From positions 1 to 64,000 of IMG/VR virus record IMGVR_UViG_3300021371_000009: DNA of 64,000 nt; one strand, written 5' to 3'. Below are positions 1 through 64,000 of this stretch, piece by piece (position 1 is the stretch's first letter; the number at the start of each line of letters is the position of its first letter). Source of the stretch: a virus. Below the pieces are notes generated by a model, which had not been told where the DNA came from, ran no database searches, and worked only from the letters and a program-made list of their open reading frames with translations. The translations under genes and the position numbers were made by a program.

Positions 1-1555
1 TGCTATACAGATTTGACAATGCTACACACAACTCGACTGCTTTGTTGAATTGAACAGTATTCATTTTGTCATTGAAAAGTTCTAACAATGAAACACCACT
101 AACATTCAGTTCATTCATATTAAGAGACTGAAGGTTCTCTAGATTTGTTTGTGTTCGCTTGTAGTACTCAGAAGAGAATGCATAAGCAGAGAAAGGAATC
201 TGTGCTTTTTTGCAGAACAATGCGAGACAAAGCAACTGCTCCATAGTACCTTTCATGTTATCTGACATTGAACCAGACCAGTCAAGGAAGAAAACCATAC
301 CGTGGTTCTTACCATTTGGAAGAACAGTCTTTTTCATAAAGATATCTTCATTGTACTTGTATGAGTAAAGCAGATTTGAATTGATAACACCAGTCTTGGT
401 AGTGTTTGCTCGGGCATACATATCTGCCGCTTTTTTCATTTCGAATTCTTTGTGCAGATAATTGATTACCTTTTCATTCTTCTTTTTGAATTCTTTTGCA
501 GTCTTGGTCAACAGATTTTTGACACGCTCGGTGTTACCCCAATGTTCTACAATTTCAGAATGAATTGTGGTGAATGGAACAACGACTTCATTGATATTGA
601 TAGTCTTAGGAATATCATAGTAACGAGGAATCGAATCCTCATCAGTCTCGACAAACTTTTTGGTATTCTTGTTAGATGCCATATCAGTAATTGATTTGAC
701 ACCAGGAGCAGAACCTTCAGTATCTTCTGCTTTACCATCCATATCATCTACTAAATTTGGTGCTTTAGTTTTTACTGTATCTTCGCCATCGGCATCTTCT
801 TCTGTATCAGCAGAGTTTGCTTGACCTTGCTCTTCTGCATCTTGGTCAGCATCACCTTGTACAGCATTCATACCTTGACCTTCGCCTTCATCAGCACCAT
901 CATTATCGGCGTTTTGCTCTTGCTCATCGCCTTGCTCAGATTGCATCATGTAAGGAGAAACATCAGGATTATCTTCTGAATTCTGTTGCTTTTCTTCTAA
1001 CTCTTGCTGACAATATTCGAACAACTCTTCTGATAGTTTGATAACTTCATCAAAAGTTTGAGTAGTCATAGAACGGTCAAAGAATTCTTTTTCTTTACCT
1101 GTCAACTCAATGTTGATTTGAGTACCGAGTTTTGCTTTTAGATTGATGCGGTCGATAAGAAGCAAATCAGAAATGTTCATTTCTTCTGTACCAAAGAAAT
1201 TATTCTCATGCAACTGTGTGTATGCTTGATAGAATGGTTTCTTTAGACCAGGATATTTCTTCTGAATTAGTCGCTCAATGCGGGCATCTTCTACGACATT
1301 CACAACTGAATGAAAATTCTTAGATTTGATAGGAAGGTTCTCCATGCCATCGCAAGGAGTCCATAGAGCATGGGCGACTTCATGACCAACAAACAGGTCT
1401 AGAGTTTTTGCATCTAAATCTTTCATTGTCGGAATACGCAATATGCGATTTTTAACATCGAAACTAGCAGTATCGACATTTGCATACTCGACAGTCAAGT
1501 TCTCAGTAGCAAGCAATTTTGCTAGAACAGATTTGACTTCAGTAATTTTTGTCAT
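1..1555 (-). CDS. HEXXH metallopeptidase-like / CobT-like VWA protein (partial, runs off left edge)
   Basis: Read manually: ATG at 1555 after GAAGG RBS, MTKITEVKSVLAKLLATENLTVEY..., HEVAHALWTP (HEXXH), NVVEDARIE, acidic linker, MIDAS-like FFLDWSGSM near 270-298. Absent from ORF track because it has no stop in the window. Confidence 0.8.
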   Translation of the reverse strand, partial: MTKITEVKSVLAKLLATENLTVEYANVDTASFDVKNRILRIPTMKDLDAKTLDLFVGHEVAHALWTPCDGMENLPIKSKNFHSVVNVVEDARIERLIQKKYPGLKKPFYQAYTQLHENNFFGTEEMNISDLLLIDRINLKAKLGTQINIELTGKEKEFFDRSMTTQTFDEVIKLSEELFEYCQQELEEKQQNSEDNPDVSPYMMQSEQGDEQEQNADNDGADEGEGQGMNAVQGDADQDAEEQGQANSADTEEDADGEDTVKTKAPNLVDDMDGKAEDTEGSAPGVKSITDMASNKNTKKFVETDEDSIPRYYDIPKTININEVVVPFTTIHSEIVEHWGNTERVKNLLTKTAKEFKKKNEKVINYLHKEFEMKKAADMYARANTTKTGVINSNLLYSYKYNEDIFMKKTVLPNGKNHGMVFFLDWSGSMSDNMKGTMEQLLCLALFCKKAQIPFSAYAFSSEYYKRTQTNLENLQSLNMNELNVSGVSLLELFNDKMNTVQFNKAVELCVALSNLYS

Positions 1556-1587
1556 GAACACACCTTCTTTTCTCATCATCTATATAC

Positions 1588-1617
1588 ATAATAACATACG
1601 TTATCATATTTTGTCAA
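1588..1617 (-). promoter_or_regulatory. sigma70-type early promoter
   Basis: TTGACA (1617-1612), 18 nt spacer, TGn-TATTAT (1593-1588), upstream of the HEXXH/VWA gene. Confidence 0.7.
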
Positions 1618-1751
1618 GCGAAAATCGCACTGATTATGGCAATAATGACAAAAAAACTAAAATAAAATGCCATTAGACCAATTCCAATCAGAACAATCCA
1701 CCAGATAATTCTAAAAGGAAGTGTCAAACCAAACCAAATCGCACTAAACAT
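1614..1751 (-). CDS. 45-aa hydrophobic membrane protein (not in ORF track)
   Basis: MFSAIWFGLTLPFRIIWWIVLIGIGLMAFYFSFFVIIAIISAIFA*, GAGAGG RBS and its own promoter upstream. Confidence 0.65.
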   Translation of the reverse strand: MFSAIWFGLTLPFRIIWWIVLIGIGLMAFYFSFFVIIAIISAIFA

Positions 1752-1776
1752 TTATACCTCTCTCATTTCTAGGTAT

Positions 1777-1805
1777 ACAATACCACAGGTAGATTAGTTT
1801 GTCAA
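1777..1805 (-). promoter_or_regulatory. sigma70-type early promoter
   Basis: TTGACA (1805-1800), 17 nt spacer, TGn-TATTGT (1782-1777); shares CGCTTGACAAA with the promoter at 1588-1617. Confidence 0.7.
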
Positions 1806-1828
1806 GCGTTTTTTCATGAATATTTGTA

Positions 1829-2500
1829 TCATCTCTTCATAATAGTTACATAGTATCTGAAATCATCATAACGAGATATTTTTGATGAAACTGTAGCGTA
1901 AGGTATTGATGATGAACCATCTGCAAAATTTTCAAACTTTCTAATACCACCTGCAACATGTGCAGTTATATCTGCATTATATAATTTCTTTAGACCATGT
2001 ACTCCCTGTAAAATTTCAATGTAATTATTATATTCATTTTCGTCTGTTGAGTTTTGAATTATACACAAGATACCATCATCTGCTAATGCTTGCGATAGTC
2101 TAAGCAACAAAGCACTCTTATTATCATACTGGTCAAATGCATCAATAGAGAAAATTAGATTTGCATCTCTCCGCTTAGACAATATAAAGTCTTTGTAAAA
2201 AGAGATACCAGAATGTCTAATCTTACATGCTTCAAGCATGTTTTGGTCATTATTATATCCAATACACTTTTTAAAATTATATTCGCCTTTCAGACATGCT
2301 AGACCGTATCCAAGACCACAGTTAATATCCATCGCTGTGATTTCAGTATGATTTTGCAGATAGTCTTTGATGAAGTAACGATATGTTTGATATGCATATT
2401 TTTCAATGCCACACAACTCATCATAATCTTTTTGACCCCAATCTTCGAATTCGACTGGTACGTTACTAAAGATGTTTTTTGAATACGAATATCGGTTCAT
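1829..2500 (-). CDS. class I SAM-dependent methyltransferase-like protein
   Basis: Motif I-like MDINCGLGYG, LIFSIDAF and LADDGILCI (L-x-P-G-G-like) segments. Confidence 0.7.
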   Translation of the reverse strand: MNRYSYSKNIFSNVPVEFEDWGQKDYDELCGIEKYAYQTYRYFIKDYLQNHTEITAMDINCGLGYGLACLKGEYNFKKCIGYNNDQNMLEACKIRHSGISFYKDFILSKRRDANLIFSIDAFDQYDNKSALLLRLSQALADDGILCIIQNSTDENEYNNYIEILQGVHGLKKLYNADITAHVAGGIRKFENFADGSSSIPYATVSSKISRYDDFRYYVTIMKR

Positions 2501-4025
2501 ACTTTAACCAGATGCCGTTGACTTTACAAAAGTTTTTCGCCCGCGGTTTACCTGTCTCCTCATCAACTCTATTACCACCTGGCATCTGTGCTAGTGCCAT
2601 CTTTAATGTGGTCACATACTCAAATCCAAGTTCTTCACAGATACGAATACTATCACCTTCTAAAGGTAGCATCTCATTACCGAACTTTGCATCTGCAATA
2701 TTCCAGAGTAAGTATCTGTCGTTCTTTAAGTATTTATATGCGTTAGTAAGTGTAGGTCTAAGAAACCCTTCTACCCACGCTTCATACTGGTCGAACTTCT
2801 TGTACGATTGTTCTTCGTCCTCGCTATACGCCTCTTTCGCAAAATAAGGCGGCGAGGTGAAGACCATATCGATACTCTCTTCTTCACATTCAAAGACTTC
2901 TGACCCACATTGGTGAATTTCGTATGTGTTTGTATGTGGGAATAGACCTGTTGCTCTGTAAGTTTTCTCATTGAAAAACCTTGCAAGTTCAGCATACTTT
3001 GTGCTTTTGGTACCGTCTTCTGTAATGACAGTATGGTCGGTATTAGGGTCAGTCCCAATATAGTGTATATTGCGGTCATCAGAGACAGACATAGCACCAA
3101 GAATACGACCGCCCCAACCAGCAGAGGGATCCCAAATACGAATAGTAGACTGGTCTTTAAAATGCTCAGTATATTTTTCATAGAGATATTTAGCAGTAAG
3201 AGGCGGAAAGTTTACTGCGTATTGACACCAAGAGATACGAAAAGGTTTGAACCCCAAAGGAAAGATTTTTTGACCTTTCTTGAACAGCATAATCTGATAA
3301 ACATCATATTCGTCTTTCATATTGACTTTGCATTTGTCAGGTATGTCTAGTTGTTCAATTTCTTCTCTAGTAACTTGCGCCCACGCGACATCTCTTAGTT
3401 TGTCATCATAACCCGTATAGTCTTGTTCTTTGTCTGGTTTCAACCAATAATCATGTGTGTCATATTGACGACCATTACGCTCAAACCAATCAATAAAAGA
3501 CCTGCCGCTAGAAACTGTGTGCCGTAAGGTCCCAAATTCAACCAACCCTTCTTGCTTAATAGGATTGCTATAATGATAGAAAGAATCCCGCTTAAAGTGA
3601 CGATGCCCATATGTATATACTTTCTGAAATAAATCTTCATCTACGAAATGGTCATAGATAGATTTTGCTTTGCTGATATCGTTGTAAACAATCTTTGTTT
3701 TCATCATTGTAGGAAACCACTGATTAGCGGCATTACCTATAACTGATGTATTACGAATAACATCTCGCTCACCTGTCTCTTCGTTAAAGCATTCAAACTC
3801 ATGAACAGGAAAACTAGACATCTTATTGAACTGGTCAATAATATCAGTTTCACTCCAACCAACTCTTGGAGGCAGACCTAGTTCATCCCATGAGTATACT
3901 ACTTCTTTTCGCATATCATGCAACCATTGACGAAATTCATCGTCTGTCATCCATAGAACTTCTTCGAATGTCTTGTTTACTTCATGTTCTAGTAGATAAC
4001 TATTTCTTTCATAAAAATGCTTCAT
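2466..4025 (-). CDS. DNA amino-methyltransferase (N4-C/N6-A type)
   Basis: WDPSAGWGGR (motif I), YIGTDPN, catalytic FTSPPYF (motif IV), long N-terminal region. Confidence 0.8.
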   Translation of the reverse strand: MKHFYERNSYLLEHEVNKTFEEVLWMTDDEFRQWLHDMRKEVVYSWDELGLPPRVGWSETDIIDQFNKMSSFPVHEFECFNEETGERDVIRNTSVIGNAANQWFPTMMKTKIVYNDISKAKSIYDHFVDEDLFQKVYTYGHRHFKRDSFYHYSNPIKQEGLVEFGTLRHTVSSGRSFIDWFERNGRQYDTHDYWLKPDKEQDYTGYDDKLRDVAWAQVTREEIEQLDIPDKCKVNMKDEYDVYQIMLFKKGQKIFPLGFKPFRISWCQYAVNFPPLTAKYLYEKYTEHFKDQSTIRIWDPSAGWGGRILGAMSVSDDRNIHYIGTDPNTDHTVITEDGTKSTKYAELARFFNEKTYRATGLFPHTNTYEIHQCGSEVFECEEESIDMVFTSPPYFAKEAYSEDEEQSYKKFDQYEAWVEGFLRPTLTNAYKYLKNDRYLLWNIADAKFGNEMLPLEGDSIRICEELGFEYVTTLKMALAQMPGGNRVDEETGKPRAKNFCKVNGIWLKYEPIFVFKKHL

Positions 4026-4249
4026 TCAATAATCTCAACATCACTTTCTGTTTCTATCACTACTCTTGCGCCGCAAGATAGAATAGGTTTTTCATTACCA
4101 CCATAACGAACTACACTGTCACCTAGTATCTTAACTGCATGACAATATGTATTTGAGCGACCTTTTTTAACAGTGATAACAGGTTCGTTTGTACCATGCT
4201 TTTTGTTCGCTCTAATCTTATGTTGGTTTACATGTATATAGGTTTTCAT
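4022..4249 (-). CDS. hypothetical phage protein
   Basis: 75-aa ORF with RBS, ATGA overlap with the downstream methyltransferase. Confidence 0.7.
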   Translation of the reverse strand: MKTYIHVNQHKIRANKKHGTNEPVITVKKGRSNTYCHAVKILGDSVVRYGGNEKPILSCGARVVIETESDVEIIE

Positions 4250-4259
4250 ATTACTCTCA

Positions 4260-4832
4260 TTATAGCATCATTGGACTGGTTTTGTCAAACACTAAATCAA
4301 AACTTTTCCATGTTAATGTCATTCGACAATTAGTTTTTACCGAGGTAGATAATCCTCGATGCGGCATTAAAGAACTAAATATCACAACTCTACCTGGAAC
4401 AAAATCAACTACACCCATTTGAGTTTCAAATCCTCTTATTCCTTCGTGTAAATAATTTACCATGTACAAAATGGTAAAGTTCTCTTGTAAATTTTTTGTT
4501 CGATGTAAACTATCAATGTGCATAGAACCGTCTAATTCATATGTTTGTCCATTGATATAAACATGTTGTTTATCTAAGTCCTTTTCTTTAACTTCAAACT
4601 TATAGTATTCTTTGATTTTATTAAAGATAAACTTTTGGTCAGGACAATCTAATATATGTGTATAATCATTCAGTCTTTTACTGCACCAAAATATTGCATC
4701 ATCTGGATTGTTTGATACATTACCATAATAAAATAAATTATCATGATATTTTGTTGCTACTCTTGCTACAAACTCATCATCAAACAAATTATCGACATAA
4801 TCTAATCTCTTTATCATGCCGCCACGTTCCAA
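4260..4832 (-). CDS. 2OG-Fe(II) oxygenase
   Basis: YINGQ...MHID (HxD), FVPGRVVIF...PHRG...R.TLTWK; true start may be MIKRLD at about 4814. Confidence 0.8.
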   Translation of the reverse strand: MERGGMIKRLDYVDNLFDDEFVARVATKYHDNLFYYGNVSNNPDDAIFWCSKRLNDYTHILDCPDQKFIFNKIKEYYKFEVKEKDLDKQHVYINGQTYELDGSMHIDSLHRTKNLQENFTILYMVNYLHEGIRGFETQMGVVDFVPGRVVIFSSLMPHRGLSTSVKTNCRMTLTWKSFDLVFDKTSPMML

Positions 4833-5581
4833 AACAAATTAAGTTTATTTCTATCCATATTTTCTTGTATCACTTTCCATGCTTTTGCATCATATTCAGG
4901 AGCAGACGGAAATGGTGGTGCTTCTGATTGCTTCACTGGTTTGTCATATTTATATGCAGTTTCATGTAAGATAGCACGACCAATCTGACGGTCATCCATC
5001 TTATGACCCGTCTGTATCACATGAACTTCGGACTCTGGGAATGCAAGTTGCAACCCTCGGTTTATCGTTCCTGATGACCCTACTGTCCAGATTACTTCTG
5101 GCGCTACATCTAGCGACTGCGCTACTTTCACTATACTTCCTAGCACCCAATCGTGTTCTAGTCCTAAGGGCAATGTCCTGCGGGTTTGAGGACTCTCTCT
5201 GCGGTATCGCTCTGCTCTTGACAGAGTGACATTTAGCATTCCCATCTTCACCCATTCAATACGACCTCCATACTCCATGTATTTCTGTTGATGCCATGTT
5301 GGTTCTTTTCTATCTGCCCAAAAGCAAGTTGCTTTTTTTCCATACTTCTGACAAACATATGCTAGTGAGATTGGACCCCAACCTACTTTGTTTGAACCAC
5401 CGAACACCCACTCTTCGCAATCGGTATCCCGTATGAGTTTGTCGATGAACCGCACTTTTGAACCTGCAGGTAGTAGGTCATCCCGAACCACGATAACATC
5501 ATCATGATTGCAAAGAACAGGCGCATCGTAAGGGTCTTCCCAATCACTCACTAACTCTAAATAATCTTCTGCATTTATCAT
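4814..5581 (-). CDS. fold-type II PLP-dependent enzyme (ACC deaminase / D-cysteine desulfhydrase-like)
   Basis: VRDDLLPAGSKVR with PLP lysine, GSSGT phosphate loop, YDAKAW. Confidence 0.8.
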   Translation of the reverse strand: MINAEDYLELVSDWEDPYDAPVLCNHDDVIVVRDDLLPAGSKVRFIDKLIRDTDCEEWVFGGSNKVGWGPISLAYVCQKYGKKATCFWADRKEPTWHQQKYMEYGGRIEWVKMGMLNVTLSRAERYRRESPQTRRTLPLGLEHDWVLGSIVKVAQSLDVAPEVIWTVGSSGTINRGLQLAFPESEVHVIQTGHKMDDRQIGRAILHETAYKYDKPVKQSEAPPFPSAPEYDAKAWKVIQENMDRNKLNLFWNVAA

Positions 5582-6686
5582 TTGCTTCTATATCCACCAC
5601 TAAATGTATTCTTGTTTCATCACCATTGTTAATCGCCATATGTGGTTTGCGAATATCTAGATACCACAACTCACCTTCTTTCATATTAACAACATGCTTC
5701 TGCCCATGCATATCCCATGAAGTAAATTCCATATTTGGATTTGTAATCACTGGAATATGTAGTCTCATAATCTTACCATCTGCAACACCAAGATAAGGGT
5801 CAACTTGGTCTGTGTGTCTTTGCAGTTCACCACCACCTGGAGCGAGTGACATAAATCTTATTCGCTCAATATTGTCAGTAGGTATCTTTGAGAGTATCTC
5901 ATTGACATACGGAAACTGCTCACGCAAAGGTGTGTCTTCACACTCCCACTCTTCCCATGTGTCGTTTTCTGCTTTCCATTTCTTGCTCATCTCAACAGGT
6001 TTTGCAATAAATGATGCATCTGGTCTATATCCTCTCAGCGATATTGCTGACCAAGCACCTTTTTTATTGTAATTTGAGTAATGATTAGTATACTCAAGTG
6101 TCAATTTTTCTAGTTCGGTGCGTATAATCGATGTTTCGATAGTGTCAAACATGCATTTACTTATAGAAACCGTCTCAGCGCCGTCTATAGGCGGATGAGA
6201 GCGATCCTCGAATGAAGTGCTAGAATTACGAAAGAATACGCTATATATCTCTGCAAACGTAGTTATTTTGCTACCAACATAGTCGAATCCTGCTTCTTTA
6301 GCAAACTCAACTGCTTTTGCATCTTCTGACCACACAAACAACCAACAGTTTCTATCTGAATAGTGATTGATGTAGTTCTTTACGTTTTCTGTATATGCAG
6401 ATATATTTTGAATTACAACATCACCTGGTTCTTTATAACCAATAATAGTCTCACCGTGCATTGTAATCTTTGACTTAACTTTTGCTTCCGTGATATTAAT
6501 CCATGCATCACCCGCTTTGCGTAGAGAACCTTTGTCTAAGAAGTCTGCTACATTATTCTTTTTAAACTGTGCAAAAGGACTATCAGTGTATGAATTATAA
6601 TGGTCATACTCTGCAGTAATTTCTTTTAGGTAATCTAACTGATAACCTTTCTGCCAATCTTTCATTTCTACTTCTGTTTGTGTCAT
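5544..6686 (-). CDS. GNAT-like domain fused to Asp/Asn beta-hydroxylase-like 2OG-Fe(II) cupin
   Basis: N-terminal WLFVWSEDAKAVEFAKEAGFDYVG (GNAT C-terminal motif); C-terminal RFMSLAPGGGELQRHTD, RLHIPVITNP, KPHMAINNGDETRIHLVVD. Confidence 0.75.
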   Translation of the reverse strand: MTQTEVEMKDWQKGYQLDYLKEITAEYDHYNSYTDSPFAQFKKNNVADFLDKGSLRKAGDAWINITEAKVKSKITMHGETIIGYKEPGDVVIQNISAYTENVKNYINHYSDRNCWLFVWSEDAKAVEFAKEAGFDYVGSKITTFAEIYSVFFRNSSTSFEDRSHPPIDGAETVSISKCMFDTIETSIIRTELEKLTLEYTNHYSNYNKKGAWSAISLRGYRPDASFIAKPVEMSKKWKAENDTWEEWECEDTPLREQFPYVNEILSKIPTDNIERIRFMSLAPGGGELQRHTDQVDPYLGVADGKIMRLHIPVITNPNMEFTSWDMHGQKHVVNMKEGELWYLDIRKPHMAINNGDETRIHLVVDIEANDKCRRLFRVSE

Positions 6687-7279
6687 ATGTCTGACCTTTC
6701 TTCTACACTATTAAATAAATTTTCTTCAATGGCAAAACTAACTGAACATCTTGGTCCAGAAATAATAGGGCAATGTCTCCACCCTTTTGGAATAAATATC
6801 ATGTCATTAGGTTCTAGTATAAACTCCTCTATTACATCATCTTCTTCAGGTCCTTGCTGAACCTTCCAAGGTGTATTACCTTGAATTTGCCATATGTATG
6901 TATTCATATCATCCATATGAAAATTAAGTCCATCACTTTCAGAAACAAAAGAAGCAAATAAGTGACAATTAACTCTACTAGTAGTTCTATTGATAATATG
7001 TTTCTCTTCAATAATTTTTCTTACATATGTAACCTGAGGTATCAACTCGGCGTTGTGAGTAGCAAAAGAAGGAAATATATTAGTATCATTATCAATTTCA
7101 ATTTGATTTTGAGATACTAATCTAATTGCTCTTCCAGACTTAGGAAAACCGGTGCGCCATTCTTCAGAGTTTCTATAATCAACTGATGCTTGAAAGTTAT
7201 GTACTATGTCAGACCATTCAAATCTTTCAAAAGGCATAACTCCTATTTCACCAGGTCTAGGTAAATCAACCCACCGCAT
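6683..7279 (-). CDS. JmjC/cupin-4 oxygenase (YcfD/RoxA-like)
   Basis: GLNFHMDDMNTYIWQIQGNTPWKV and LEPNDMIFIPKGWRH. Confidence 0.8.
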   Translation of the reverse strand: MRWVDLPRPGEIGVMPFERFEWSDIVHNFQASVDYRNSEEWRTGFPKSGRAIRLVSQNQIEIDNDTNIFPSFATHNAELIPQVTYVRKIIEEKHIINRTTSRVNCHLFASFVSESDGLNFHMDDMNTYIWQIQGNTPWKVQQGPEEDDVIEEFILEPNDMIFIPKGWRHCPIISGPRCSVSFAIEENLFNSVEERSDI

Positions 7280-7799
7280 CTAATTTTAACTTTCCATCTT
7301 TTACTAACTTTTTAATTTTCTTATCTCTTGCTTTGACACCTCTATCAAGCACCAACTTTGATGCTCTCTGTGTGAAATCGATGCCGAGCATATGATCCAT
7401 TTCATGTAAGAATATTCGTGCAGTCATACCTTCATATTTAAACTTCTGGTTATTACCTTTTTCATCATAATATGATACTACACAGAAAACAGGTCTACGA
7501 ATTGATAAAAACAATCCAGGCCATGTCAAACAACCTTCTTTCATTGCTTTCAGTTCAGATGACATTGTAAGTACTTGAGGGTTAAAAACATTCAAACGAA
7601 AATCATCTTGACCCATGACAAAAACTTTAGTGTTAAAACCCACTTGAGTTGCAGATAATCCTACGCCTTTATAGTGTAGCATATTATCCCACAACTGGTC
7701 AGCAAGTTCAATTGGATTCATAAATGGATTCTCAAAATCAAACTCTTCTGGTTTGTATCTTGCTTCACTTGGAGGCGTTAAATCTAAAATTTTACTCAT
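7266..7799 (-). CDS. def: peptide deformylase
   Basis: GVGLSATQVG, EGCLT and HEMDH motifs. Confidence 0.93.
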   Translation of the reverse strand: MSKILDLTPPSEARYKPEEFDFENPFMNPIELADQLWDNMLHYKGVGLSATQVGFNTKVFVMGQDDFRLNVFNPQVLTMSSELKAMKEGCLTWPGLFLSIRRPVFCVVSYYDEKGNNQKFKYEGMTARIFLHEMDHMLGIDFTQRASKLVLDRGVKARDKKIKKLVKDGKLKLDAVG

Positions 7800-31376: not shown

Positions 31377-31769
31377 TTATGCTAGAATTGCTTCGACCTG
31401 ACCATGTTGTAATGTATTATCTGTTAATGCAATTGCTTTCACGGCAGCAAAATCGGCGGCGTTATCAACTGTCAACATTCCTTTATAAGCAGATAATACT
31501 AGAGTATCACCCTTTGATACAGTACCTCGTACAGAAACGATGCAACGTCCAGTCAAAGCAACATATGGATTTGACGTTTTATCTAGGGAATAGATAACTC
31601 CAATTGCTTTGTTATCATCTGCACCCGTAGTCACTGCGATATCATAAGTTCCTGCCGCGGCGCGAACAAAGGTACCTACAGACAAAAGATTTGCCGGATC
31701 AATTGTAAATCTTTCAGCAAAGTCTGATACTTCTCTTTGTAGAATTAATCTTCCGTTTTTAATTGGCAT
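31377..31769 (-). CDS. stand-alone fibre C-terminal chaperone-like domain (peptidase G2/IMC-like)
   Basis: SDFAERF...AIGVI...VALTGRCIVSVRGTVSKGDTLV pattern seen at fibre C-termini. Confidence 0.55.
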   Translation of the reverse strand: MPIKNGRLILQREVSDFAERFTIDPANLLSVGTFVRAAAGTYDIAVTTGADDNKAIGVIYSLDKTSNPYVALTGRCIVSVRGTVSKGDTLVLSAYKGMLTVDNAADFAAVKAIALTDNTLQHGQVEAILA

Positions 31770-32686: not shown

Positions 32687-33256
32687 TTAAACACCATCGT
32701 GTGTTACCGATCCAGATTTTACTCGATCCTCAGGTATTGCAATTTCTTTTGCAATCATATAGAAATCTCTAACTTCGACATCTCTATCAGTATTTTCGTT
32801 TCTAACTTTCACTTCAAAGGTAATCGCATTAGTTACTCTAGGTATATATGCATGTGTGAGAGCAACATTACTTCTAAAATTACTTGTTGATCCATAGCGA
32901 CTATGGGAAGTGTTCAATCTATCGTTTCTACCGCCATGATGACTAAATGTATTACCGTAAGGGGTTAACCCATGAAATCCATTTTGCTCATACTCATTAA
33001 TACCATTTGCAAATAATGCCGCCGCGTAAGTATCTAATGTGTTTGTTCCTCCGCCAACATCTCCCATTACAAAACTAGCACTTATTTCCATTATGCTTGT
33101 TGCATATAGTGGTGTAATTGTAAGTGGCGAATTATCAATTGTGGTAAATTGATTAGAATTTGTGCTATGAATCCAAGAACCAGAATTTTCTGAAAATTTA
33201 TATTGGATTAATAAAGAACCTTTCACTGCCCTTTTAGTTATCTTTTGTAAGGCCAT
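32687..33256 (-). CDS. fibre/receptor-binding module, paralog 5
   Basis: MALQKITK start, TITPLYATS and MIAKEIA shared with the four upstream paralogs. Confidence 0.7.
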   Translation of the reverse strand: MALQKITKRAVKGSLLIQYKFSENSGSWIHSTNSNQFTTIDNSPLTITPLYATSIMEISASFVMGDVGGGTNTLDTYAAALFANGINEYEQNGFHGLTPYGNTFSHHGGRNDRLNTSHSRYGSTSNFRSNVALTHAYIPRVTNAITFEVKVRNENTDRDVEVRDFYMIAKEIAIPEDRVKSGSVTHDGV

Positions 33257-33531: not shown

Positions 33532-33825
33532 TCTAAGTCCACCAAGTGAAGTTACTAAATATTCTTGACTATCATTAACGTAAATTGCGCCTTGATATGT
33601 ATCAGTTACATTTGATGCGTTTTCCGTATCTCTCACGGACATATTTGATTGTGTTTCTAGTATTGAATCGGCATACTGTGGCGTCATTAATATATTTTTA
33701 CCGTTAATTTGAGTAAAGGTACTTGATGCGGTATTAATATCAAAGTCACCAGTATTCTCAACGTACTTAAATTGTACTAAGAGAGACCCATGTACAATAT
33801 GTTTTGTTACTCTTGTTAATGCCAT
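33277..33825 (-). CDS. fibre/receptor-binding module, paralog 4
   Basis: MALTRVTKHIVHGS, TPQYADSILE, LIAKEIS. Confidence 0.7.
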   Translation of the reverse strand: MALTRVTKHIVHGSLLVQFKYVENTGDFDINTASSTFTQINGKNILMTPQYADSILETQSNMSVRDTENASNVTDTYQGAIYVNDSQEYLVTSLGGLRPYGNQFSHHGGRNDRLRTSTSRHGHATGQSYALNMNHAFTPGTTNEQDIDVRARCTADRNFMVRDLFLIAKEISIGLASSGSQN

Positions 33826-48141: not shown

Positions 48142-49500
48142 CTAGAATTCAATGACTAGTTTGATATCTTCAATCTGGTCAGATGCACGATTAATCGGGC
48201 GTCTATGTTCTAGATACATGATATCACCACTGTCAGGTTCTACTTCAGGATTGTTTAGTGCATTGATAGTACCTGCGGCAGAAGAAGTTCCACCTGTTAC
48301 TGTCTCAGCACCAGTGAATGAAGTAAATCCAGTATTCACATCTTGATAGTAGCGTAGAATTCTGTTACTAGAATCCCAATCAATTACTCTCGCAGATGCA
48401 GATGAAGAACCACCTGTGATTGTTTCATCAACTACAAATGTTCCAGTAAGACCCGCACTCTCAAAAGTGATAGACTTAGTTGCTGTTCTTGTAGTATCTG
48501 TAGCAACAGTAGTAGTACCATAGTTAAATGGATCACGAACAAGACCAATTCTACGATAGTCATTAGAAACTGGGAAGTCACCAGAACCATCATTGTACTC
48601 AAGTCTTACATTGTTCATTACATAGAATCCACCAAGTTCATGAATAGCATTCGATGAATGTCCACCTTCTGGTGAAATGATTGCTTTCAATGCTCCAGCA
48701 GAACCTCCACCACCGGACACAGTGATAGTTGCTTGAGTATAACCAGAACCTGCGTTGGTAATATTTACTGCATTAATAGAACCAGCAGAAACGGTTACTG
48801 TTGCAGTTGCGCCTGTACCATCACCAGTAATAGTGACTGTAGGTGCTGACGTATAACCAGAACCTGCGGCAGTGATATTAATTTTCTTAATTTCACCATC
48901 TGTTGCCGCTTGCTGTGTATCATACTGTTCTTTGTATGGTTGTCCGGCGCCTGGATCAGAAGCAATGAATTTCACTGGCATGAAGTCCGTTGACAAGAAC
49001 TTCAGAGCATCAGCGGCAGAAATTGTGTACATGTATTTCCATACATAACTATCTGCAGTTGTGATATAACCAGTGTCAGTACCAGTTGGTTTTGTAGTTG
49101 ATGCGCCACCATTGTTATTATTAATAACTTTGTAGACGTTGTAATCATCTGTCAGAACATAGTATGTTGCGGCAGAAAGTGATGTTGCACCACTGGCGGC
49201 AGCATTTGTTGATGAATAGTCATGCGCGTACTCATCGTATACTGTACCAGAAGTCCAGTCTCTTCTTACTACTGCGTGAACAACGTCTGATGCAGTCACA
49301 CGCTTCATGGCGACCATATCGTCATAAGCATTAAATGCTGTATCGTTGTTATCAACAGGAGTAGGAGGAGATGTATCATCGGACCACGCTTGTGGACGAC
49401 CGATGAACAAATAAATGTTTGTTCCTGATGCTTCACTGAATGCTTCGATATATTGCTCTGCATTGTGAATACGGAACTTATTAGTAATGATTGCGGCCAT
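48142..49500 (-). CDS. gp8: baseplate wedge subunit
   Basis: YLFIGRPQAW, YNVYK, YVWKYMYTI, QIEDIKLVIEF. Confidence 0.92.
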   Translation of the reverse strand: MAAIITNKFRIHNAEQYIEAFSEASGTNIYLFIGRPQAWSDDTSPPTPVDNNDTAFNAYDDMVAMKRVTASDVVHAVVRRDWTSGTVYDEYAHDYSSTNAAASGATSLSAATYYVLTDDYNVYKVINNNNGGASTTKPTGTDTGYITTADSYVWKYMYTISAADALKFLSTDFMPVKFIASDPGAGQPYKEQYDTQQAATDGEIKKINITAAGSGYTSAPTVTITGDGTGATATVTVSAGSINAVNITNAGSGYTQATITVSGGGGSAGALKAIISPEGGHSSNAIHELGGFYVMNNVRLEYNDGSGDFPVSNDYRRIGLVRDPFNYGTTTVATDTTRTATKSITFESAGLTGTFVVDETITGGSSSASARVIDWDSSNRILRYYQDVNTGFTSFTGAETVTGGTSSAAGTINALNNPEVEPDSGDIMYLEHRRPINRASDQIEDIKLVIEF

Positions 49501-52506: not shown

Positions 52507-54467
52507 TAATATCCGCTTCCACTGCCGCTACCTGATGATCCGCTACTACCACCACTGCTTTGTACTTGAATACTTGATGCGGCACCTGCTACACCTGTAC
52601 CTCCAGTTCTACTTAATTCACTAGAACTAGTAGTCTGATAATCAACACCCGCTGAGGATTCTCCAGTTGCAATCTTATCAACGATTGTATTAACTGTGAT
52701 ATCTTCAGTATTGATAGTTAATAGTACATTACGAACACTTACAATATCGTTAGAATTCAATGTCACAAAAACCTCAACTGAGTTATTATCTAAGACTGTT
52801 CCTGTAATATTCAACTGGTCAACGATTAGTTTACCTGTGCCATAATCAATAGCACCTTGCGTATTATTAACATAAACTTTAGTTGATGAACCTTCTTCAA
52901 GATAATATGAACGAATGTTTCCATTACCATCATCATCTAAGTACAATGTTTGAAGTCTTCCTGAAATATTAAATCCCGTTGAAGATAAGTTTGATGGTGA
53001 TCCAGGTCCTTGAGTAAATATTGGATTATAGAAGTTAATAGTATATTTACTTTCTTGATTTAAAATAGCATCAAAATTTCTCTCGCATCTAATTGTTGAA
53101 ATGTTAGATATAACACCTTTATCTGCTTGGTCAATAATAGATACAAATTTAGAATATCTAAAAACACTATCAAAGTCTTTTAATTCTGTAGAATTGAAAG
53201 TTGTGACTGCATCACGAATAGCAGAAGAAATATCAGTCATCGTTGATGTTGTAATATTCGGATTCCAATACGCTGTGATTGTAGGAATAATATTAATATA
53301 AACAGGGTCTACAATTTCAGGTGTGATAGAAACCATAGTCTTTCCAGATAAGACAGTATTTTTAATAGCATCTTTAGTTGATGTGGTCAATGTTCTTCCT
53401 GTTTTCGGTTTGATTGACAAAAATACTTTTCCGTAAATAGGAGGGTCATTATCTTCACCACCCCAAACTTGCATAGCATCAACATTATTATATAACTTAG
53501 GAAGAATAACTTTATAGTCTTCTGCGGTCACTGCTCTTTTTTGTGCAGAGTATGATTTAGGAGCATTAAATTTTATACTCTCTATAGTTTCTCTAGGTGC
53601 ACCGTTTTCAGAGTTGATGACAGTAGTAATTGTTGCGTTAGTAGAACCACCGACAGAACTTTGCAGTGTAAATGAATTTGCTCCATTAGCATCTTCTTCA
53701 TTACATACAATATATTCAATAATTATGATATTACCATCTGATAGTGATTTACCCAAAACATCATCACCAAAAGACAACTCATAGAAACCATTTTCAACAG
53801 CATCTAGAAAAAATACTTCCGAGTCGGATTTGACTTCTAAGAAGTCATCTGCTTCAACATAAGTTGATGTTGTTAAATCAGCAACAGATTCCTGAACTTT
53901 TACTTTTAGTGTAGACACATCTATGTTTCTATCATTCAATAAAAATCTTTGTGCAGGATCGGCACTATTTTTAGTATATTGAAGTGTCAGTAGTGTTCCT
54001 TCTTTCACATCGATATTGGTAAATGTATAGACACCTTCTGTAGGAATAATAGTTACATCAGAAGTTGTAACAAATTGATAGTTAGCATCATTCACACGAC
54101 TTCTAAATACGGTTCCTTTAGTCATCGTCAAAGAAGATGGATTTCCAGTAGGACTATTAATAGTTACGTTAATTCTAGCAGTTGCCGCTGTTGAAGAGCG
54201 AGGACGATATCCAAGATGTTTTGCAAGAGATATTACACTATCTCTTTTCACCGCACTGTCTAAGAACATTTCGTTTGCTACCATGTTTGCGTAAATAGCA
54301 TTGTAGTGTGTATTATAAGATAGTACATCAAGCAACGTATTCATTGCTGACCCCTCAAAATTATAATCTTTAAATTCTTCTTGAGATGATAAGTAAGATT
54401 TTAGATTAGTTTTAATATTGTTAAAATCTAACTCGGTAACTCTTAATCTGCTAGTTGTCTGTGCCAT
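52506..54467 (-). CDS. gp6: baseplate wedge subunit
   Basis: LDFNNIK, DYNFEGS, YNTHYNA, RAVTAEDY, WGGEDNDPP.YGKVF. Confidence 0.96.
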   Translation of the reverse strand: MAQTTSRLRVTELDFNNIKTNLKSYLSSQEEFKDYNFEGSAMNTLLDVLSYNTHYNAIYANMVANEMFLDSAVKRDSVISLAKHLGYRPRSSTAATARINVTINSPTGNPSSLTMTKGTVFRSRVNDANYQFVTTSDVTIIPTEGVYTFTNIDVKEGTLLTLQYTKNSADPAQRFLLNDRNIDVSTLKVKVQESVADLTTSTYVEADDFLEVKSDSEVFFLDAVENGFYELSFGDDVLGKSLSDGNIIIIEYIVCNEEDANGANSFTLQSSVGGSTNATITTVINSENGAPRETIESIKFNAPKSYSAQKRAVTAEDYKVILPKLYNNVDAMQVWGGEDNDPPIYGKVFLSIKPKTGRTLTTSTKDAIKNTVLSGKTMVSITPEIVDPVYINIIPTITAYWNPNITTSTMTDISSAIRDAVTTFNSTELKDFDSVFRYSKFVSIIDQADKGVISNISTIRCERNFDAILNQESKYTINFYNPIFTQGPGSPSNLSSTGFNISGRLQTLYLDDDGNGNIRSYYLEEGSSTKVYVNNTQGAIDYGTGKLIVDQLNITGTVLDNNSVEVFVTLNSNDIVSVRNVLLTINTEDITVNTIVDKIATGESSAGVDYQTTSSSELSRTGGTGVAGAASSIQVQSSGGSSGSSGSGSGSGY

Positions 54468-54871: not shown

Positions 54872-54889
54872 ATGACTATTTATACCTGT

Positions 54890-55186
54890 TTACCCACCAG
54901 CAAATACATTCTTTGAACCAGTTGCAACTGATGTGCAAGAAGTTACACCATCTCCAACTCTACCACAACCTTTATTGTTCACAAATACTGTTGACGAACC
55001 TTTACTTATAGGTTTCGCATGAGAAGGACATGGTGCACCAGGTAGTTTATGAGTTGTATTCTTATCACCTTGTCTACTAATACCAGTACCATTACAAAAC
55101 ACATTGCCACTTCTTTGGTCTCTCTTAGGAATTGAACAATGTATCACATCTTTATCAACGCTATCACCTCTACAAACTGCTGGCAT
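54890..55186 (-). CDS. PAAR spike-tip protein (gp5.4-like)
   Basis: PAVCRGD, GSSTVFVN, RVGD, GSKNVFAG with Cys/His ligands. Confidence 0.92.
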   Translation of the reverse strand: MPAVCRGDSVDKDVIHCSIPKRDQRSGNVFCNGTGISRQGDKNTTHKLPGAPCPSHAKPISKGSSTVFVNNKGCGRVGDGVTSCTSVATGSKNVFAGG

Positions 55187-55383: not shown

Positions 55384-55395
55384 CTATTTTACCCC

Positions 55396-56298: not shown

Positions 56299-56307
56299 AA
56301 TCTACCT

Positions 56308-57030: not shown

Positions 57031-57059
57031 AAGATGCTATTCTCTCCCTTTAGTCTTAT

Positions 57060-58827: not shown

Positions 58828-58829
58828 AA

Positions 58830-60745: not shown

Positions 60746-60757
60746 ATGGTTTCTTCC

Positions 60758-60786
60758 TATAAATAGTAATTACGATATTATTTATA
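60758..60786. promoter_or_regulatory. pair of face-to-face late promoters at the strand switch
   Basis: TATAAATA on + at 60758-60765 and on - at 60786-60779. Confidence 0.8.
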
Positions 60787-60799
60787 AGAGTTTTTCGAT

Positions 60800-61234
60800 A
60801 TGGCATATAAAGGTAGATACACTCCACAAAATAAAGACAAATACGCAGGTAATCCATCGAATGTGATATATCGCTCTCTTTGGGAACGTAAACTTATGAA
60901 ATGGTGTGACCTAAATCCTGACGTTATCAAATGGGGAAGTGAAGAAACTGTGATTCCTTATGTGTCACCTCTTGATAATAAAATACATCGATATTTCGTA
61001 GACTTCTATATACAAGTCAGAACAAAAGATGGACTGATTAAATCTTATCTAGTAGAAGTAAAACCCAAAAAATACACTAAACCTCCCGAAACTAATCCTA
61101 AGAAGAAGTCAAAGTCTTGGTTTTCTGAAGTTAAGAATTGGGGAGTTAATTCTGCGAAATGGAAAGCGGCAAGTGAATATGCTAAAGATAAGAAATGGGA
61201 TTTCATAATTCTCACAGAAGACCATTTAAAGTAG
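60800..61234 (+). CDS. gp4: head completion nuclease
   Basis: YRSLWE, WGSEE..IPY, HRYFVDF, VEVKP, LTE. Confidence 0.95.
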   Translation: MAYKGRYTPQNKDKYAGNPSNVIYRSLWERKLMKWCDLNPDVIKWGSEETVIPYVSPLDNKIHRYFVDFYIQVRTKDGLIKSYLVEVKPKKYTKPPETNPKKKSKSWFSEVKNWGVNSAKWKAASEYAKDKKWDFIILTEDHLK

Positions 61235-61247
61235 CATAAATACTATT

Positions 61248-61841
61248 ATGGCAGAGATTAAAGTACTAGAAGAAATAAGGAATGCGTCTGGAGACCAAAG
61301 ACGTTCTGCACAATGGTATCAAGACCAAGTAAAAAGTCTTGTCGGTACTCGCTATGAACCTACGCAGTTTCAAAGAGAGTATGCAGAAAATATGACAGGC
61401 AGAATGTTACCTGGACGTATGTATTTGATAAACTATTCAAACCCTATTGGAAAAGGAACTCCAGCATTACCTTACTATGATATGTTTCCTCTTATACTTC
61501 CATTTAATGTCGAAAGTAGTTACATTACCGCACTAAACTTTCACTATCTACATCCAGTCAATAGAGTTATACTATTAGAGAAACTAAGTAGATTTAAAAT
61601 AGGTGATACAGATATTCAAACGAGAATTCGTGCAGATTGGGGTATACTAAGTAACTTTGCTAGATTTAGAGAAGTAAGACCTTCTGTGAAGAGATATAAG
61701 AAAAGTCAAATAAAAGGTAGATACTTGTTTATACAACCTGATGACTGGACAACAGCGGCAATGTTACCGACAGAGAGTTTTAGGGGTGCAAGTAAGCAAC
61801 AAGTCTATTTAGACAGTAACAGAAAAATGAGGGCAAGATGA
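61248..61841 (+). CDS. gp2: DNA end protector protein
   Basis: LPYYDMFPL, LNFHYL, LPTESF. Confidence 0.92.
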   Translation: MAEIKVLEEIRNASGDQRRSAQWYQDQVKSLVGTRYEPTQFQREYAENMTGRMLPGRMYLINYSNPIGKGTPALPYYDMFPLILPFNVESSYITALNFHYLHPVNRVILLEKLSRFKIGDTDIQTRIRADWGILSNFARFREVRPSVKRYKKSQIKGRYLFIQPDDWTTAAMLPTESFRGASKQQVYLDSNRKMRAR

Positions 61842-62596
61842 GTATAGATAATTTTATTGCAGAAGTGCATGGAAGAGACGGAGCAGGACTTGCAAAGTCT
61901 AATAGGTATATGGTAGTTATTGATGTGCCTAGAGGTCCATCTGCTAATAATTTAGGTCGCTCTTCTAGATTTTCAGATATTAGTGCGGGTCAAAATCAAT
62001 ACGGAAGATACTCGCAACTAATAAATGGTCAAAGACTAGTAAATCTTTACTGTGAAGCAACATCACTACCATCAATGAACATAGATACTAAATTAAATAA
62101 ACAGTATGGACCAGGAAGAGAAATTCCTTATGGTCATAGTTATACGCCTGTCAACTTTACATTTTATATGGACAGAGAGTATACTGTAAAGAAATTTTTT
62201 GATGCGTGGCAGAGAACAATTATTGACCCAGACACATCAAAAACTAATTACTACAATGAATATGTGACTTCTGTTCATATTCTAGCACTAGATAATAAAG
62301 ACAGCATAGATGCAAATGGAACACTAAGAGCAAAATATCAATGCACACTGATAGAAGCATATCCAAAAACTGTTGCTGAAATTGCATACAGCGCAAGTAA
62401 CTCTGAAGTAGCAAGACTTCAAGTATCAATGCAATTCAGAAAATGGAAAGAAACTACTGCGGCGACTGGTATTGGTTCACTTGGTTCTAATATTGTCATG
62501 AATGATTATGTAACATATAATCCTGTGCAGTCAGTACAAGCACGTTCTGATGCGAATTTCGCAAGAATGGAAGCAGACGTTGAAGATTTATGGTAA
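61838..62596 (+). CDS. tail tube initiator (gp54 / gp19 family)
   Basis: GLAKSNRY, CEATSLP, FFDAWQ, EAYPKTV. Confidence 0.82.
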   Translation: MSIDNFIAEVHGRDGAGLAKSNRYMVVIDVPRGPSANNLGRSSRFSDISAGQNQYGRYSQLINGQRLVNLYCEATSLPSMNIDTKLNKQYGPGREIPYGHSYTPVNFTFYMDREYTVKKFFDAWQRTIIDPDTSKTNYYNEYVTSVHILALDNKDSIDANGTLRAKYQCTLIEAYPKTVAEIAYSASNSEVARLQVSMQFRKWKETTAATGIGSLGSNIVMNDYVTYNPVQSVQARSDANFARMEADVEDLW

Positions 62597-62635
62597 TTAA
62601 ATATTAACTAACGATTAAACTATGGAGAAAACAAT

Positions 62636-63340
62636 ATGGCACTACCAAGACTTGATGCACCACAATATGACTTGACATTATATAATGGTGAGAATATTAA
62701 GTTCAGACCTTTTCTGGTCAAAGAACAAAAACTTCTTCTATTGGCAGTAGAAGAGCAAGAACAAAAACATGTTATGAATGCTATGAAGCAAATCATTTCA
62801 AATTGCATCTTCGACCAAGTAGATGTAAATACATTACCTATATTCGAAATCGAGAATATATTCTTACGATTGAGAGAAAAATCTGTAGGTGAGCAAATTG
62901 ATTTGAGATTAGTATGTACTGATGAAGAGTGTAAAGGACAAACACCCTATACATTGGACTTGACACAAATTAAATATGATATGGATAGTATTCCTAGTAG
63001 AACAATTAAGATTAGTGAAAATGTTAATCTTAATATGAGATTTCCAACAATGTCAAATTTAGAAGATGTAACTAATTTAGAAAATGTAGAAGATAACTTC
63101 AAATTTCTTGCGAGTTGTATTGAAAGCATTGAAGCAGATGGAAATATCTATGATGTAGATACAACACCGAAAGAAGAAATTCAAGCATTCATCGAAAGTA
63201 TGACAACATCACAATTTAATATGCTAAAGAATTTCTTTACAACTTTACCAAGATTATCGAAAGACCTTGATTATACATGCAGTAAGTGTGGAAAGGAACA
63301 AAAAAGAGTAATTAGTGGAATACAAAGTTTTTTAGCGTAG
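62636..63340 (+). CDS. gp26: baseplate hub assembly chaperone
   Basis: MALPRL, FRPFLVKEQKLLL, LREKSVGE, CxxC pairs, GIQSF. Confidence 0.93.
   Translation: MALPRLDAPQYDLTLYNGENIKFRPFLVKEQKLLLLAVEEQEQKHVMNAMKQIISNCIFDQVDVNTLPIFEIENIFLRLREKSVGEQIDLRLVCTDEECKGQTPYTLDLTQIKYDMDSIPSRTIKISENVNLNMRFPTMSNLEDVTNLENVEDNFKFLASCIESIEADGNIYDVDTTPKEEIQAFIESMTTSQFNMLKNFFTTLPRLSKDLDYTCSKCGKEQKRVISGIQSFLA
63328..63334 (+). other. candidate -1 ribosomal frameshift heptamer T TTT TTA
   Basis: X XXY YYZ phased on the gp26 frame; the -1 frame stays open to the end of gp51. Confidence 0.7.
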
Positions 63341-63369
63341 GCCTCTCGCATGATGATTTAGTAAATCAC

Positions 63370-63516
63370 ATGAGAACTAATTTTGCACTAATGCAACATC
63401 ATAAATACTCATTAACAGAACTTGAAAATATGATGCCATGGGAGAGGGAAATTTATATAACTCTGTTGACCCAATTTATTGAAGAAGAAAATGAAAAAGC
63501 AAAACAACGGAGATAA
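63370..63516 (+). CDS. gp51: baseplate hub assembly catalyst (not in ORF track); probably also or only made as a gp26 fusion
   Basis: MRTNFALMQHHKYSLTELENMMPWEREIYITLL... Confidence 0.88.
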   Translation: MRTNFALMQHHKYSLTELENMMPWEREIYITLLTQFIEEENEKAKQRR

Positions 63517-63519
63517 TAA

Positions 63520-63852
63520 ATGGGAGAAGATATTAAAGAAGCAGGTTACCATCCAGCAGATGTAAATGGTGATGGTAAAGTCACACCTGATGAAAAGCAA
63601 ATGTATCTAGAGTTCAAAAGAAAAGAACTGGAGGATGCTGACGCAAGAAGAGATGCAATGAGACAGATGACATGGTTTGCGTTGTTGGGTATGTTATTCT
63701 ATCCAGCAGGCATTTTGATTACATCATTACTAGGACAAGATAAAGCGGCGACACTAATTGCAGATATCGCACCGACTTATTTTGTCGCAATCTCAGCATT
63801 GGTTGCCGCCTACTTTGGAGCAAATGCATATGCTGATAAGAAAAGCAAATAG
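63520..63852 (+). CDS. small membrane protein with an EF-hand-like loop (holin-like)
   Basis: DVNGDGKVT loop followed by two hydrophobic helices ending AYFGANA. Confidence 0.6.
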   Translation: MGEDIKEAGYHPADVNGDGKVTPDEKQMYLEFKRKELEDADARRDAMRQMTWFALLGMLFYPAGILITSLLGQDKAATLIADIAPTYFVAISALVAAYFGANAYADKKSK

Positions 63853-63860
63853 GTAATTAA

Positions 63861-64000
63861 ATGGCAGACAAAAAAGACACCATTGGCGGATTGAGTGATG
63901 CGGTAGAAACTCTGAATAAAGATAATGCCACATCTGGTATAGAAAGTAATCAAATACTAGGTAATATCGAAAGTGGTATTCAAGATTTATATGCCGTCAA
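63861..64000 (+). CDS. start of probable tape measure / gp29-like protein (partial)
   Basis: ATG at 63861 after AGGT, MADKKDTIGGLSDAVETLNK..., open to the window edge; identity inferred from position only. Confidence 0.45.
   Translation, partial: MADKKDTIGGLSDAVETLNKDNATSGIESNQILGNIESGIQDLYAV

Follow-up and report, generated by a model that had tools for sequence, protein, structure and literature searches.

The contig and its orphan methyltransferase gene

The DNA analyzed here, referred to as the window, is the first 64 kb (positions 1 to 64,000) of a 74,442-bp viral contig, IMG/VR record IMGVR_UViG_3300021371_000009. It carries the gene for a 519-residue protein, P0001, termed the SPPY enzyme below after its motif IV, and it displays a genome-wide footprint in which several short palindromic sites survive or vanish depending on a single flanking base. 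The contig derives from a marine, T4-like myovirus of Kyanoviridae type; its GC content is 36%, nearly all of its genes lie on the minus strand, and it is an incomplete genome, amounting to only about half. Its T4-like gene set comprises gp32, gp59, a gp33-like coactivator, and a T4 baseplate protein, accompanied by several 2-oxoglutarate/Fe(II) oxygenases, PhoH, and a peptide deformylase. The major capsid protein is 67% identical to that of Methylophilales phage Melnitz and ~60% identical to those of cyanomyophages, and Melnitz is also the closest nucleotide match (77% over the sheath and tube genes).

P0001 matches PF01555 (N6_N4_Mtase) with 32 bits against a cut-off of 26.7, over residues 385-517, as well as PHROG DNA-methyltransferase families. 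Its motif I reads DPSAGWGGR and its motif IV FTSPPYF, the serine form of motif IV (SPPY) being typical of N4-cytosine methyltransferases. The closest annotated phage homologs, at 27.5% identity, carry the label N-4 cytosine methylase. Judged by these sequence features, P0001 is a DNA amino-methyltransferase, predicted to be of the N4-cytosine type. The N-terminal ~270 residues form a conserved domain for which we found no family match.

The gene has no adjoining nuclease partner that we could find and is hence an orphan. We collected 80 IMG/VR relatives that encode it, here called carriers, which together with this contig provide 81 copies; the gene is intact in all 81, with zero stop codons, all of them share an identical motif IV, and motif I differs at one position only. 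The slot that it occupies is constant across the 80 relatives, downstream of gp46, with a peptidase on one side and PLP (pyridoxal phosphate), AspH, and deformylase genes on the other. Environmental homologs number more than 2,400, many of them on 135-160-kb contigs, and no close homolog was found in a cultured phage, the best reaching 28% identity over half of the protein. In five carrier contigs of 80-126 kb, the SPPY gene is the only above-threshold match to PF00145, PF01555, and PF02086, and PF00145, the C5-methyltransferase fold, has no match either in P0001 or in these five contigs.

An AlphaFold2 model of P0001, built from a 19-sequence alignment, has a predicted local distance difference test score of 81.5 and displays the core of a class I S-adenosylmethionine (SAM) methyltransferase. 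A structure search of this model (VIA, PDB) returned Rossmann-fold amino-methyltransferases with Z scores of 13-15.5 over ~180 aligned residues, the closest being the N2-guanine tRNA methyltransferases Trm11, TrmN, and Trm14 (Z about 15). The modeled core lies closest to methyltransferases acting on exocyclic amines of nucleic acids.

Flank-dependent survival of GATC, GANTC, and other sites

Every one of the 39 GATC sites in the window is preceded by G or followed by C (20 GGATC and 20 GATCC, one site being both), and HGATCD, in the degenerate code of the International Union of Pure and Applied Chemistry (IUPAC), does not occur. This bears out an earlier note on this DNA, which had described about 40 GATC sites in this way. 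For GANTC, that note had estimated ~50 sites with two unflanked exceptions; both exceptions exist where it had placed them (Table 1), and the actual total is 68.

For a null model, including the codon-shuffled comparison that the earlier note had proposed, we called 84 open reading frames and permuted the synonymous codons of each gene in 200 shuffles of the whole 74,442-bp contig, to which the expected counts for this genome given below refer. Unflanked HGATCD occurs 0 times against 147.6 expected and HGANTCD twice against 143, whereas the flanked forms remain common: GGATC and GATCC together are found 46 times against 94 expected, and GGANTC and GANTCC 77 times against 61. None of the 200 shuffles approached the observed counts of GATC, GANTC, GCWGC, or GCSGC. 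An unbiased greedy search over all IUPAC 7-mers likewise returned HGATCD and HGANTCD as forbidden words. Two longer sites behave in the same manner, GTTAAC being absent without a flank (0 against 13) and present with one (3 against 4), and GWGCWC being absent without a flank (0 against 10) and reduced with one (3 against 13), where all three survivors read GGTGCACC.

Close relatives assembled independently from metagenomes (L002-L009, L063) have the same footprint, which is therefore not an assembly artifact. We consider it confirmed as real and as lying far beyond chance or codon effects. The idea of a pattern devoid of biology, produced by codon usage, amino acid content, chance, or assembly, can practically be dismissed, as it is refuted by the codon-preserving shuffles and by the independent assemblies from different samples.

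Table 1. Positions of the footprint, its surviving sites, and the genes discussed in the text
Feature	Position	Strand	Details
Genome-wide footprint	1..64000		GATC, GANTC, GTTAAC, and GWGCWC kept only with 5' G or 3' C (GANTC: two exceptions)
SPPY amino-methyltransferase P0001, 519 aa	2466..4025	-	PF01555, motifs I and IV
Class I SAM-methyltransferase-fold gene, 223 aa	1829..2500	-	35-nt overlap between its start and the SPPY gene's end
GATC survivor GGGATCCC	3128..3131	+	sole doubly flanked GATC
Unflanked GANTC, 1 of 2 in window	33664..33670	+	TGAATCGG; TGAATCG, then G
Unflanked GANTC, 2 of 2 in window	53820..53826	+	CGAGTCGG; CGAGTCG, then G
GCWGC survivor as GGCAGC	31444..31448	+	one of only two in window
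GCWGC survivor as GGCAGC	49199-49203		one of only two in window
GTTAAC survivor	32964..32969	+	flanked G...C
GTTAAC survivor	43093		3' C
GTTAAC survivor	47978		5' G
GTGCAC survivor as GGTGCACC	53597..53602	+	second at 55033, third past the window
Variable slot between gp46 and the methyltransferase	4260-7799	-	contents given in text
TnsA-like endonuclease N-terminal domain protein	60800-61234	+	PF08722, at gene-orientation switch

Sites purged outright and the WCC rule

Type II sites are depleted to a degree that codon usage and composition do not explain, as assessed with both codon-preserving shuffles and Markov models, and this depletion extends to many further words. The largest purge, which the earlier note does not list, is that of AGCT (0 against 166 expected); AGCC/GGCT is absent as well (0 against 154), and GGCC is the sole surviving RGCY word, with 12 copies against 41 expected, every one of them HGGCCD. 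With both strands counted, YACGTR (0 against 85), AACGTT (0 against 40), CTTAAG (0 against 25), CWCGWG (0 against 28), and CCYRGG (0 against 22) are all missing, and CGWCG is down to 2 against 77. Judging from the range of these forbidden words, the restriction repertoire of the host or hosts seems unusually rich, and it would be predicted to include nucleases of the RGCY, GATC, GANTC, GCWGC, and GGNCC types. Melnitz and the cyanomyophages S-CAM1 and Syn19 show a 3- to 30-fold depletion of RGCY words as well, which suggests that RGCY-type pressure spans the whole phage family.

The earlier note had listed CC-containing sites as present, which is true of GGWCC (43 against 42.7 expected) but not of AGCC/GGCT, CCYRGG, or GGSCC (0 against 11); WCCWGGW is kept at expectation. 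The note had also pointed to GCWGC and GCSGC as evidence of protection. GCWGC is indeed nearly absent (2 against 88), both copies in the window being GGCAGC as the note had reported, and GCSGC is in excess (118 against 32). The codon choice it had described is likewise present: Ala-Ala pairs begin with GCG in 44 cases, GCC in 58, GCT in 2, and GCA in 0 (GCA or GCT in 2 of 104), GCA and GCT making up 82% of all Ala codons. The conclusion drawn from GCWGC and GCSGC did not hold, however, since G/C-flanked GCWGC is purged too (2 against 21 here, and 0 against 19 and 0 against 31 in relatives). GCWGC-specific (TseI-type) pressure together with the Ala-Ala codon shift explains the contrast, and the GCSGC excess needs no modification because GCSGC words are not GCWGC sites.

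To define the flank rule, we scanned the four possible flanking letters across 30 cores and found rescue by a G flank alone (C on the other strand). Control G...C cores that are not avoided, namely GTAC, GATATC, GTATAC, and GGWCC, show no flank bias. The rescued cores all end in WC, such that the flank yields TCC or ACC; writing the flank after a hyphen, they are GATC-C, GANTC-C, GTTAAC-C, and GWGCWC-C, with GTAC-C added in relatives. Flanks that create SCC instead give no rescue, as seen for AGC-C (0 against 154) and GGCC-C (0 against 11). The retained site GGWCC consists of two overlapping WCC half-sites, and survival of CCWGG is graded by its W flanks, with 40 against 40.7 expected when they are present on both sides, 14 against 24.4 on one side, and 0 against 4.1 on neither.

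The earlier note had proposed that C in CC (or G in GG) is modified and thereby shields overlapping sites. Shielding by a short-context modification is still the best explanation, but the context is WCC, and we dropped the literal CC/GG rule after SCC-creating flanks failed to rescue. A version of that rule in which every CC/GG is modified, with AGCC, flanked GCWGC, and GGSCC purged since the strand or position of the mark fails against the respective nucleases, would agree with the presence of CC/GG in each rescued site, and a one- versus two-strand mark could account for the difference between AGCC (purged) and GGCC (12 left). We nevertheless regard it as very improbable: each SCC case would call for an explanation of its own (AGCC 0/154, flanked GCWGC 2/21 plus 0/50, GGSCC 0/11, as observed/expected), and GGCC within GGSCC would be marked on both strands, yet GGSCC is purged. 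A single WCC rule covers the SCC cases, the CCWGG gradient, and the split between GGWCC and GGSCC.

Two further variants were rejected. A CviPII-like CCD rule is unsupported, given that GANTCCC occurs 10 times against 9 expected and GATCCC is depleted no more than GATCCD. The second C of WCC was discarded as the protective base, WC-CGCG standing at 0 against 36 in CGCG-purging carriers; this fits a mark on the first C, although the nuclease concerned may ignore the mark.

On balance, we favor an explanation in which N4-methylation by the SPPY enzyme falls on the first C of WCC, and in which this one-strand mark shields overlapping sites. The phage DNA would bear a base modification in the 3-bp context 5'-WCC-3'/5'-GGW-3', most likely N4-methylation of the first C, added after replication by the conserved orphan enzyme. 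GGWCC and WCCWGGW would be marked on both strands and hence fully protected, and sites ending in WC and followed by C (GATC-C, GANTC-C, GTAC-C, GTTAAC-C, and GWGCWC-C) would be marked on one strand, inside the site, which would suffice to blunt cleavage. Sites beyond the reach of this protection, namely unflanked copies and the GC- or CC-ending RGCY, GCWGC, and GGSCC, would have been removed through selection by host restriction. With about 3,050 WCC among about 27,100 C on the contig, N4-methylcytosine would be predicted to make up about 11% of the cytosines. The sequences show the footprint, its WCC rule, its recurrence in several lineages, the conserved enzyme, and the reciprocal footprint of the sister clade described below; the modification itself, its chemistry, the choice of C, the role of P0001, and host restriction as the selective agent are inferred.

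Recurrence among carrier relatives

The carriers vary in the sites that they purge. Those that purge GATC retain flanked copies at 0.45 in the close clade and 0.34 in distant carriers, with unflanked copies at 0.01 or less; no fewer than four carrier lineages show this rescue, and flanked copies persist in most GATC-purging lineages. GTAC is rescued in the same way at nine carrier loci, which represent four or more lineages (L012; L015/18/19/20; L038; L043/46/48), with HGTACD at 1/202 (observed/expected, as for all site counts written with a slash below) and GGTAC/GTACC at 2.1 times expectation. GGWCC is purged in 0 of 37 carrier loci (515/656) and GCWGC in 24 of 52. Rescue was not seen in carriers for GGCC, CGCG, ACGT, AGCT, or GCWGC.

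A reciprocal footprint in the sister clade

For contrast, we assembled a non-carrier set of 80 Melnitz-like loci (L086-L165), anchored on Melnitz gp46, plus Melnitz itself (L082+L085). The SPPY gene is found in 0 of these 80 loci and was not found in Melnitz. On a gp46 tree (mafft --retree 1 alignment, FastTree), carriers and non-carriers form two separate clades. All 23 testable non-carrier loci have purged GGWCC (9/575), flanked GATC stands at 0.09, and flanked GTAC at 0/14; in Melnitz, GATC as a whole stands at 14/306.

The Melnitz-like clade follows a flank rule of its own, keeping CCWGG only as GCCWGG or CCWGGC, with the nine HCCWGGD classes each at 0.04 or less and GCCWGGC enriched 6.5-fold; CCGG likewise persists only behind a G, and GGSCC is kept. 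In Melnitz, HCCWGGD stands at 0/55 and G-flanked CCWGG at 47/27, HCCGGD at 0/41, and GGWCC at 0/68 versus 37/32 for GGSCC. Melnitz gene 5 (L082:4010-5227) matches PDB 8YF3 over its full length (E = 6e-76; 4e-18 for M.HhaI). This structure is SpCmoX, which experimentally modifies the C of GC in a related cyanophage (PMC12783734). The footprint of Melnitz is the one expected of a cytosine modification in the GC dinucleotide, and from it we predict GC-specific C5 modification in this cultured OM43 phage. GCWGC, which contains GC, is purged in 0 of 18 loci of this CmoX-type clade. Two clades with two enzymes, two matching flank rules, and reciprocal survival of GGWCC and GGSCC form the strongest argument that the footprints reflect modification and not a nuclease quirk.

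CGCG is purged in both clades, in 33 carrier loci (1 against 358) and in 9 non-carrier loci (1 against 89), with flank rescue in neither. The purge in non-carriers holds although CGCG contains GC.

Neighboring genes

The 223-residue gene next to the SPPY gene (Table 1) is confined to the closest clade, and this clade is the only one that also purges and rescues GANTC. As a candidate for a CmoA-like carboxy-SAM synthase, this gene was rejected, as it gave only generic matches (trans-aconitate methyltransferase and BioC) and no match to a CmoA model or structure. On the other side of the SPPY gene, the variable slot encodes a DenV-like protein (PHROG 274), a PLP-fold protein, an AspH-type hydroxylase fusion, a JmjC protein, and a peptide deformylase, and homologs of the PLP and AspH genes accompany the SPPY methyltransferase in many relatives. 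Further along the window, the TnsA-like domain (E 9e-23) lies at the switch in gene orientation.

Evidence against the proposed WCC methylation, and alternative sources of the footprint

Several observations weigh against WCC methylation by the SPPY enzyme. The contig being incomplete, another modifying gene could lie in its unseen part. Structure searches say nothing about the specificity of the modeled P0001: Foldseek and VIA against the PDB returned generic Rossmann amino-methyltransferases only, with no DNA methyltransferase prominent among them and the N-terminal domain barely covered. Among the carriers, L072 (0/59 and 0/28) and L012 (0/41 and 0/18) have purged GATC fully, without rescue, despite an intact enzyme; L013, L060, and L078 are likewise purged of GATC without rescue, and L059 is reversed. 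L012 does rescue GTAC (4/9), and both L072 and L012 keep GGWCC. These cases would fit host GATC enzymes that ignore the mark, which is an extra assumption. In the contig itself, CCGG departs from the W-flank gradient, and GGAATTC/GAATTCC is absent (0 against 10.3 expected) with GAATTC as such at 38 against 39. These sites would carry the mark, so that their absence is the opposite of the rescue rule.

The non-carrier set adds further difficulties. Flanked GATC is weakly favored in Melnitz, which does not have the enzyme (10/109 versus 6/208 for unflanked), and a moderate excess of flanked GATC among the survivors also occurs in L136 (unflanked 7/32, flanked 11/15), L133, L111, and L138, where the SPPY gene was not seen; these four contigs lack the length needed to rule out the gene elsewhere, whereas Melnitz is long enough. 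Because carriers and non-carriers are separate clades on the gp46 tree, the contrast between them amounts to roughly one independent evolutionary event and is confounded with host.

Some of these observations would also follow if the SPPY enzyme were an ordinary GGWCC-specific N4-methylcytosine (m4C) methyltransferase and the survival of flanked sites reflected intrinsic flank preferences of host restriction enzymes. The contrast between 0 of 37 and 23 of 23 loci purged of GGWCC requires just GGWCC specificity, and both the weak flanked bias in Melnitz and some Melnitz-like loci and the carriers that do not rescue GATC are in line with it. This explanation is distinctly unlikely in our assessment, as the same absolute exclusion by flank would have to hold for five or more unrelated recognition sequences, and solely for flanks that make GGW; no restriction enzyme that follows a rule of this kind is known to us. 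Moreover, non-carriers that purge GATC or GTAC lose the flanked copies as well (0.09 and 0/14), the rescue of GTAC but not GATC in L012 fits enzyme-specific sensitivity to one common mark, and the flank rule of the sister clade follows that clade's own modifying enzyme. The flank rescue would instead imply that the specificity of the SPPY enzyme is wider than GGWCC and corresponds to its half-site. GGWCC methyltransferases (AvaII/SinI-type) are, in addition, usually paired with a nuclease, whereas the SPPY gene has none adjacent.

Alternatively, the WCC/GGW modification could be real but made by something other than the SPPY enzyme, or placed on another base, with the SPPY enzyme acting elsewhere. 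The source could then be a host enzyme or a gene in the half of the genome that lies outside the contig, or the mark could be one on guanine in GGW, for instance through deazaguanine exchange or N2-methylation. The contig's incompleteness, the lineages with an intact enzyme but no GATC rescue, and the structural proximity of the P0001 core to the N2-guanine tRNA methyltransferases named above would all be compatible with it, and the footprint itself is blind to which strand's base carries the mark. We consider this alternative unlikely. No further member of a DNA methyltransferase family was found in the five carrier contigs of 80-126 kb, SPPY is, as established, the N4-cytosine form of motif IV, and no transglycosylase was seen among the annotated genes, a search aimed at one not having been made. 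Field data obtained by SMRT (single-molecule real-time) sequencing also give m4C rather than any other mark at the GGWCC and CCWGG sites of marine myoviruses (PMC8919816). A mark consisting of N2-methylguanine in GGW, or of a bulkier adduct made through the neighboring SAM-methyltransferase, PLP, AspH, and JmjC genes, likewise seems unlikely to us.

Discussion

N4-methylation of WCC by the SPPY enzyme would belong to a known kind of short-context anti-restriction modification in phages, with a predicted specificity that is unusual and a footprint that was previously undescribed. The nearest parallel is CmoX of Synechococcus phage S-B43, a GC-specific DNA cytosine C5-carboxymethyltransferase (PMC12783734, PDB 8YF3). 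Like P0001, CmoX is an orphan of a T4-like marine Kyanoviridae phage; its context is very short and it provides global anti-restriction DNA modification, as is predicted for P0001. The CmoX-like gene of the Melnitz clade accompanies an analogous flank-dependent footprint. The two enzymes differ in that CmoX is a C5-methyltransferase with a PC motif and GC context, whereas P0001 is an SPPY amino-methyltransferase with a predicted N4 chemistry and a predicted WCC context. CmoX also uses carboxy-SAM supplied by CmoA, and a CmoA-like gene was not found in our match searches. The paper describing Melnitz mentions a methylase briefly.

SMRT sequencing of ocean viruses has identified m4C as the main viral modification (Hiraoka et al. 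2022, PMC8919816). In marine Myoviridae-like genomes, the m4C motifs were RGCY, CCWGG, GGWCC, CCNGG, and GGHCC, with an enzyme matched to none; RGCY was the commonest m4C motif of marine viral methylomes, and m4C in GGWCC was stated to be absent from REBASE (PMC8919816). Those genomes represent the same type of phage and the same environment as the contig studied here, and motifs among them hold the WCC/GGW half-site. They are, however, palindromes of 4-5 bp, and neither a 3-bp half-site specificity nor a site-avoidance footprint was described.

The footprint also shares much with classical restriction-site avoidance in phages, in that type II palindromes of 4-6 bp (RGCY, GATC, GANTC, GCWGC, and YACGTR, among others) are strongly purged. 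As usually described, such avoidance is independent of flanks, whereas survival here hinges on one flanking base. In our literature searches, we found no earlier description of flank-dependent site avoidance. Among virus-encoded methyltransferases, the Chlorella-virus enzymes M.CviPI (GC) and M.CviPII (CCD, first C) have targets of 2-3 bp, and M.CviPII marks the first C of a CC-containing triplet, as proposed for P0001. Both are C5 enzymes paired with viral nucleases. P0001 would thus act like CmoX, M.CviPI, and M.CviPII without being homologous to them, given that it does not match PF00145.

We place about even confidence in the broader claim that the SPPY family, which is core to a large clade of T4-like marine phages, consists of N4-cytosine DNA methyltransferases with the 3-bp target WCC, methylated at its first C. 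To our knowledge, this would be the shortest m4C specificity known. If true, it would provide a function for an unnamed and very abundant family of genes in marine myoviruses and could account for the unmatched m4C motifs of ocean viral methylomes. A frequently marking m4C enzyme of this kind would be new and could serve as a reagent for footprinting and chromatin accessibility beside the existing GC and CG enzymes. Flank-dependent gaps in avoidance could reveal the specificity of short-context enzymes, WCC here and GC for the CmoX-like family, and would thereby offer a purely computational route to such specificities in uncultured viruses. For the phages themselves, it would mean that partial modification is paired with the purging of sites, leaving complementary and readable footprints, such that sister clades facing pressures of GGNCC and CCWGG type that appear similar would retain opposite subsets of sites according to the enzyme that they carry.

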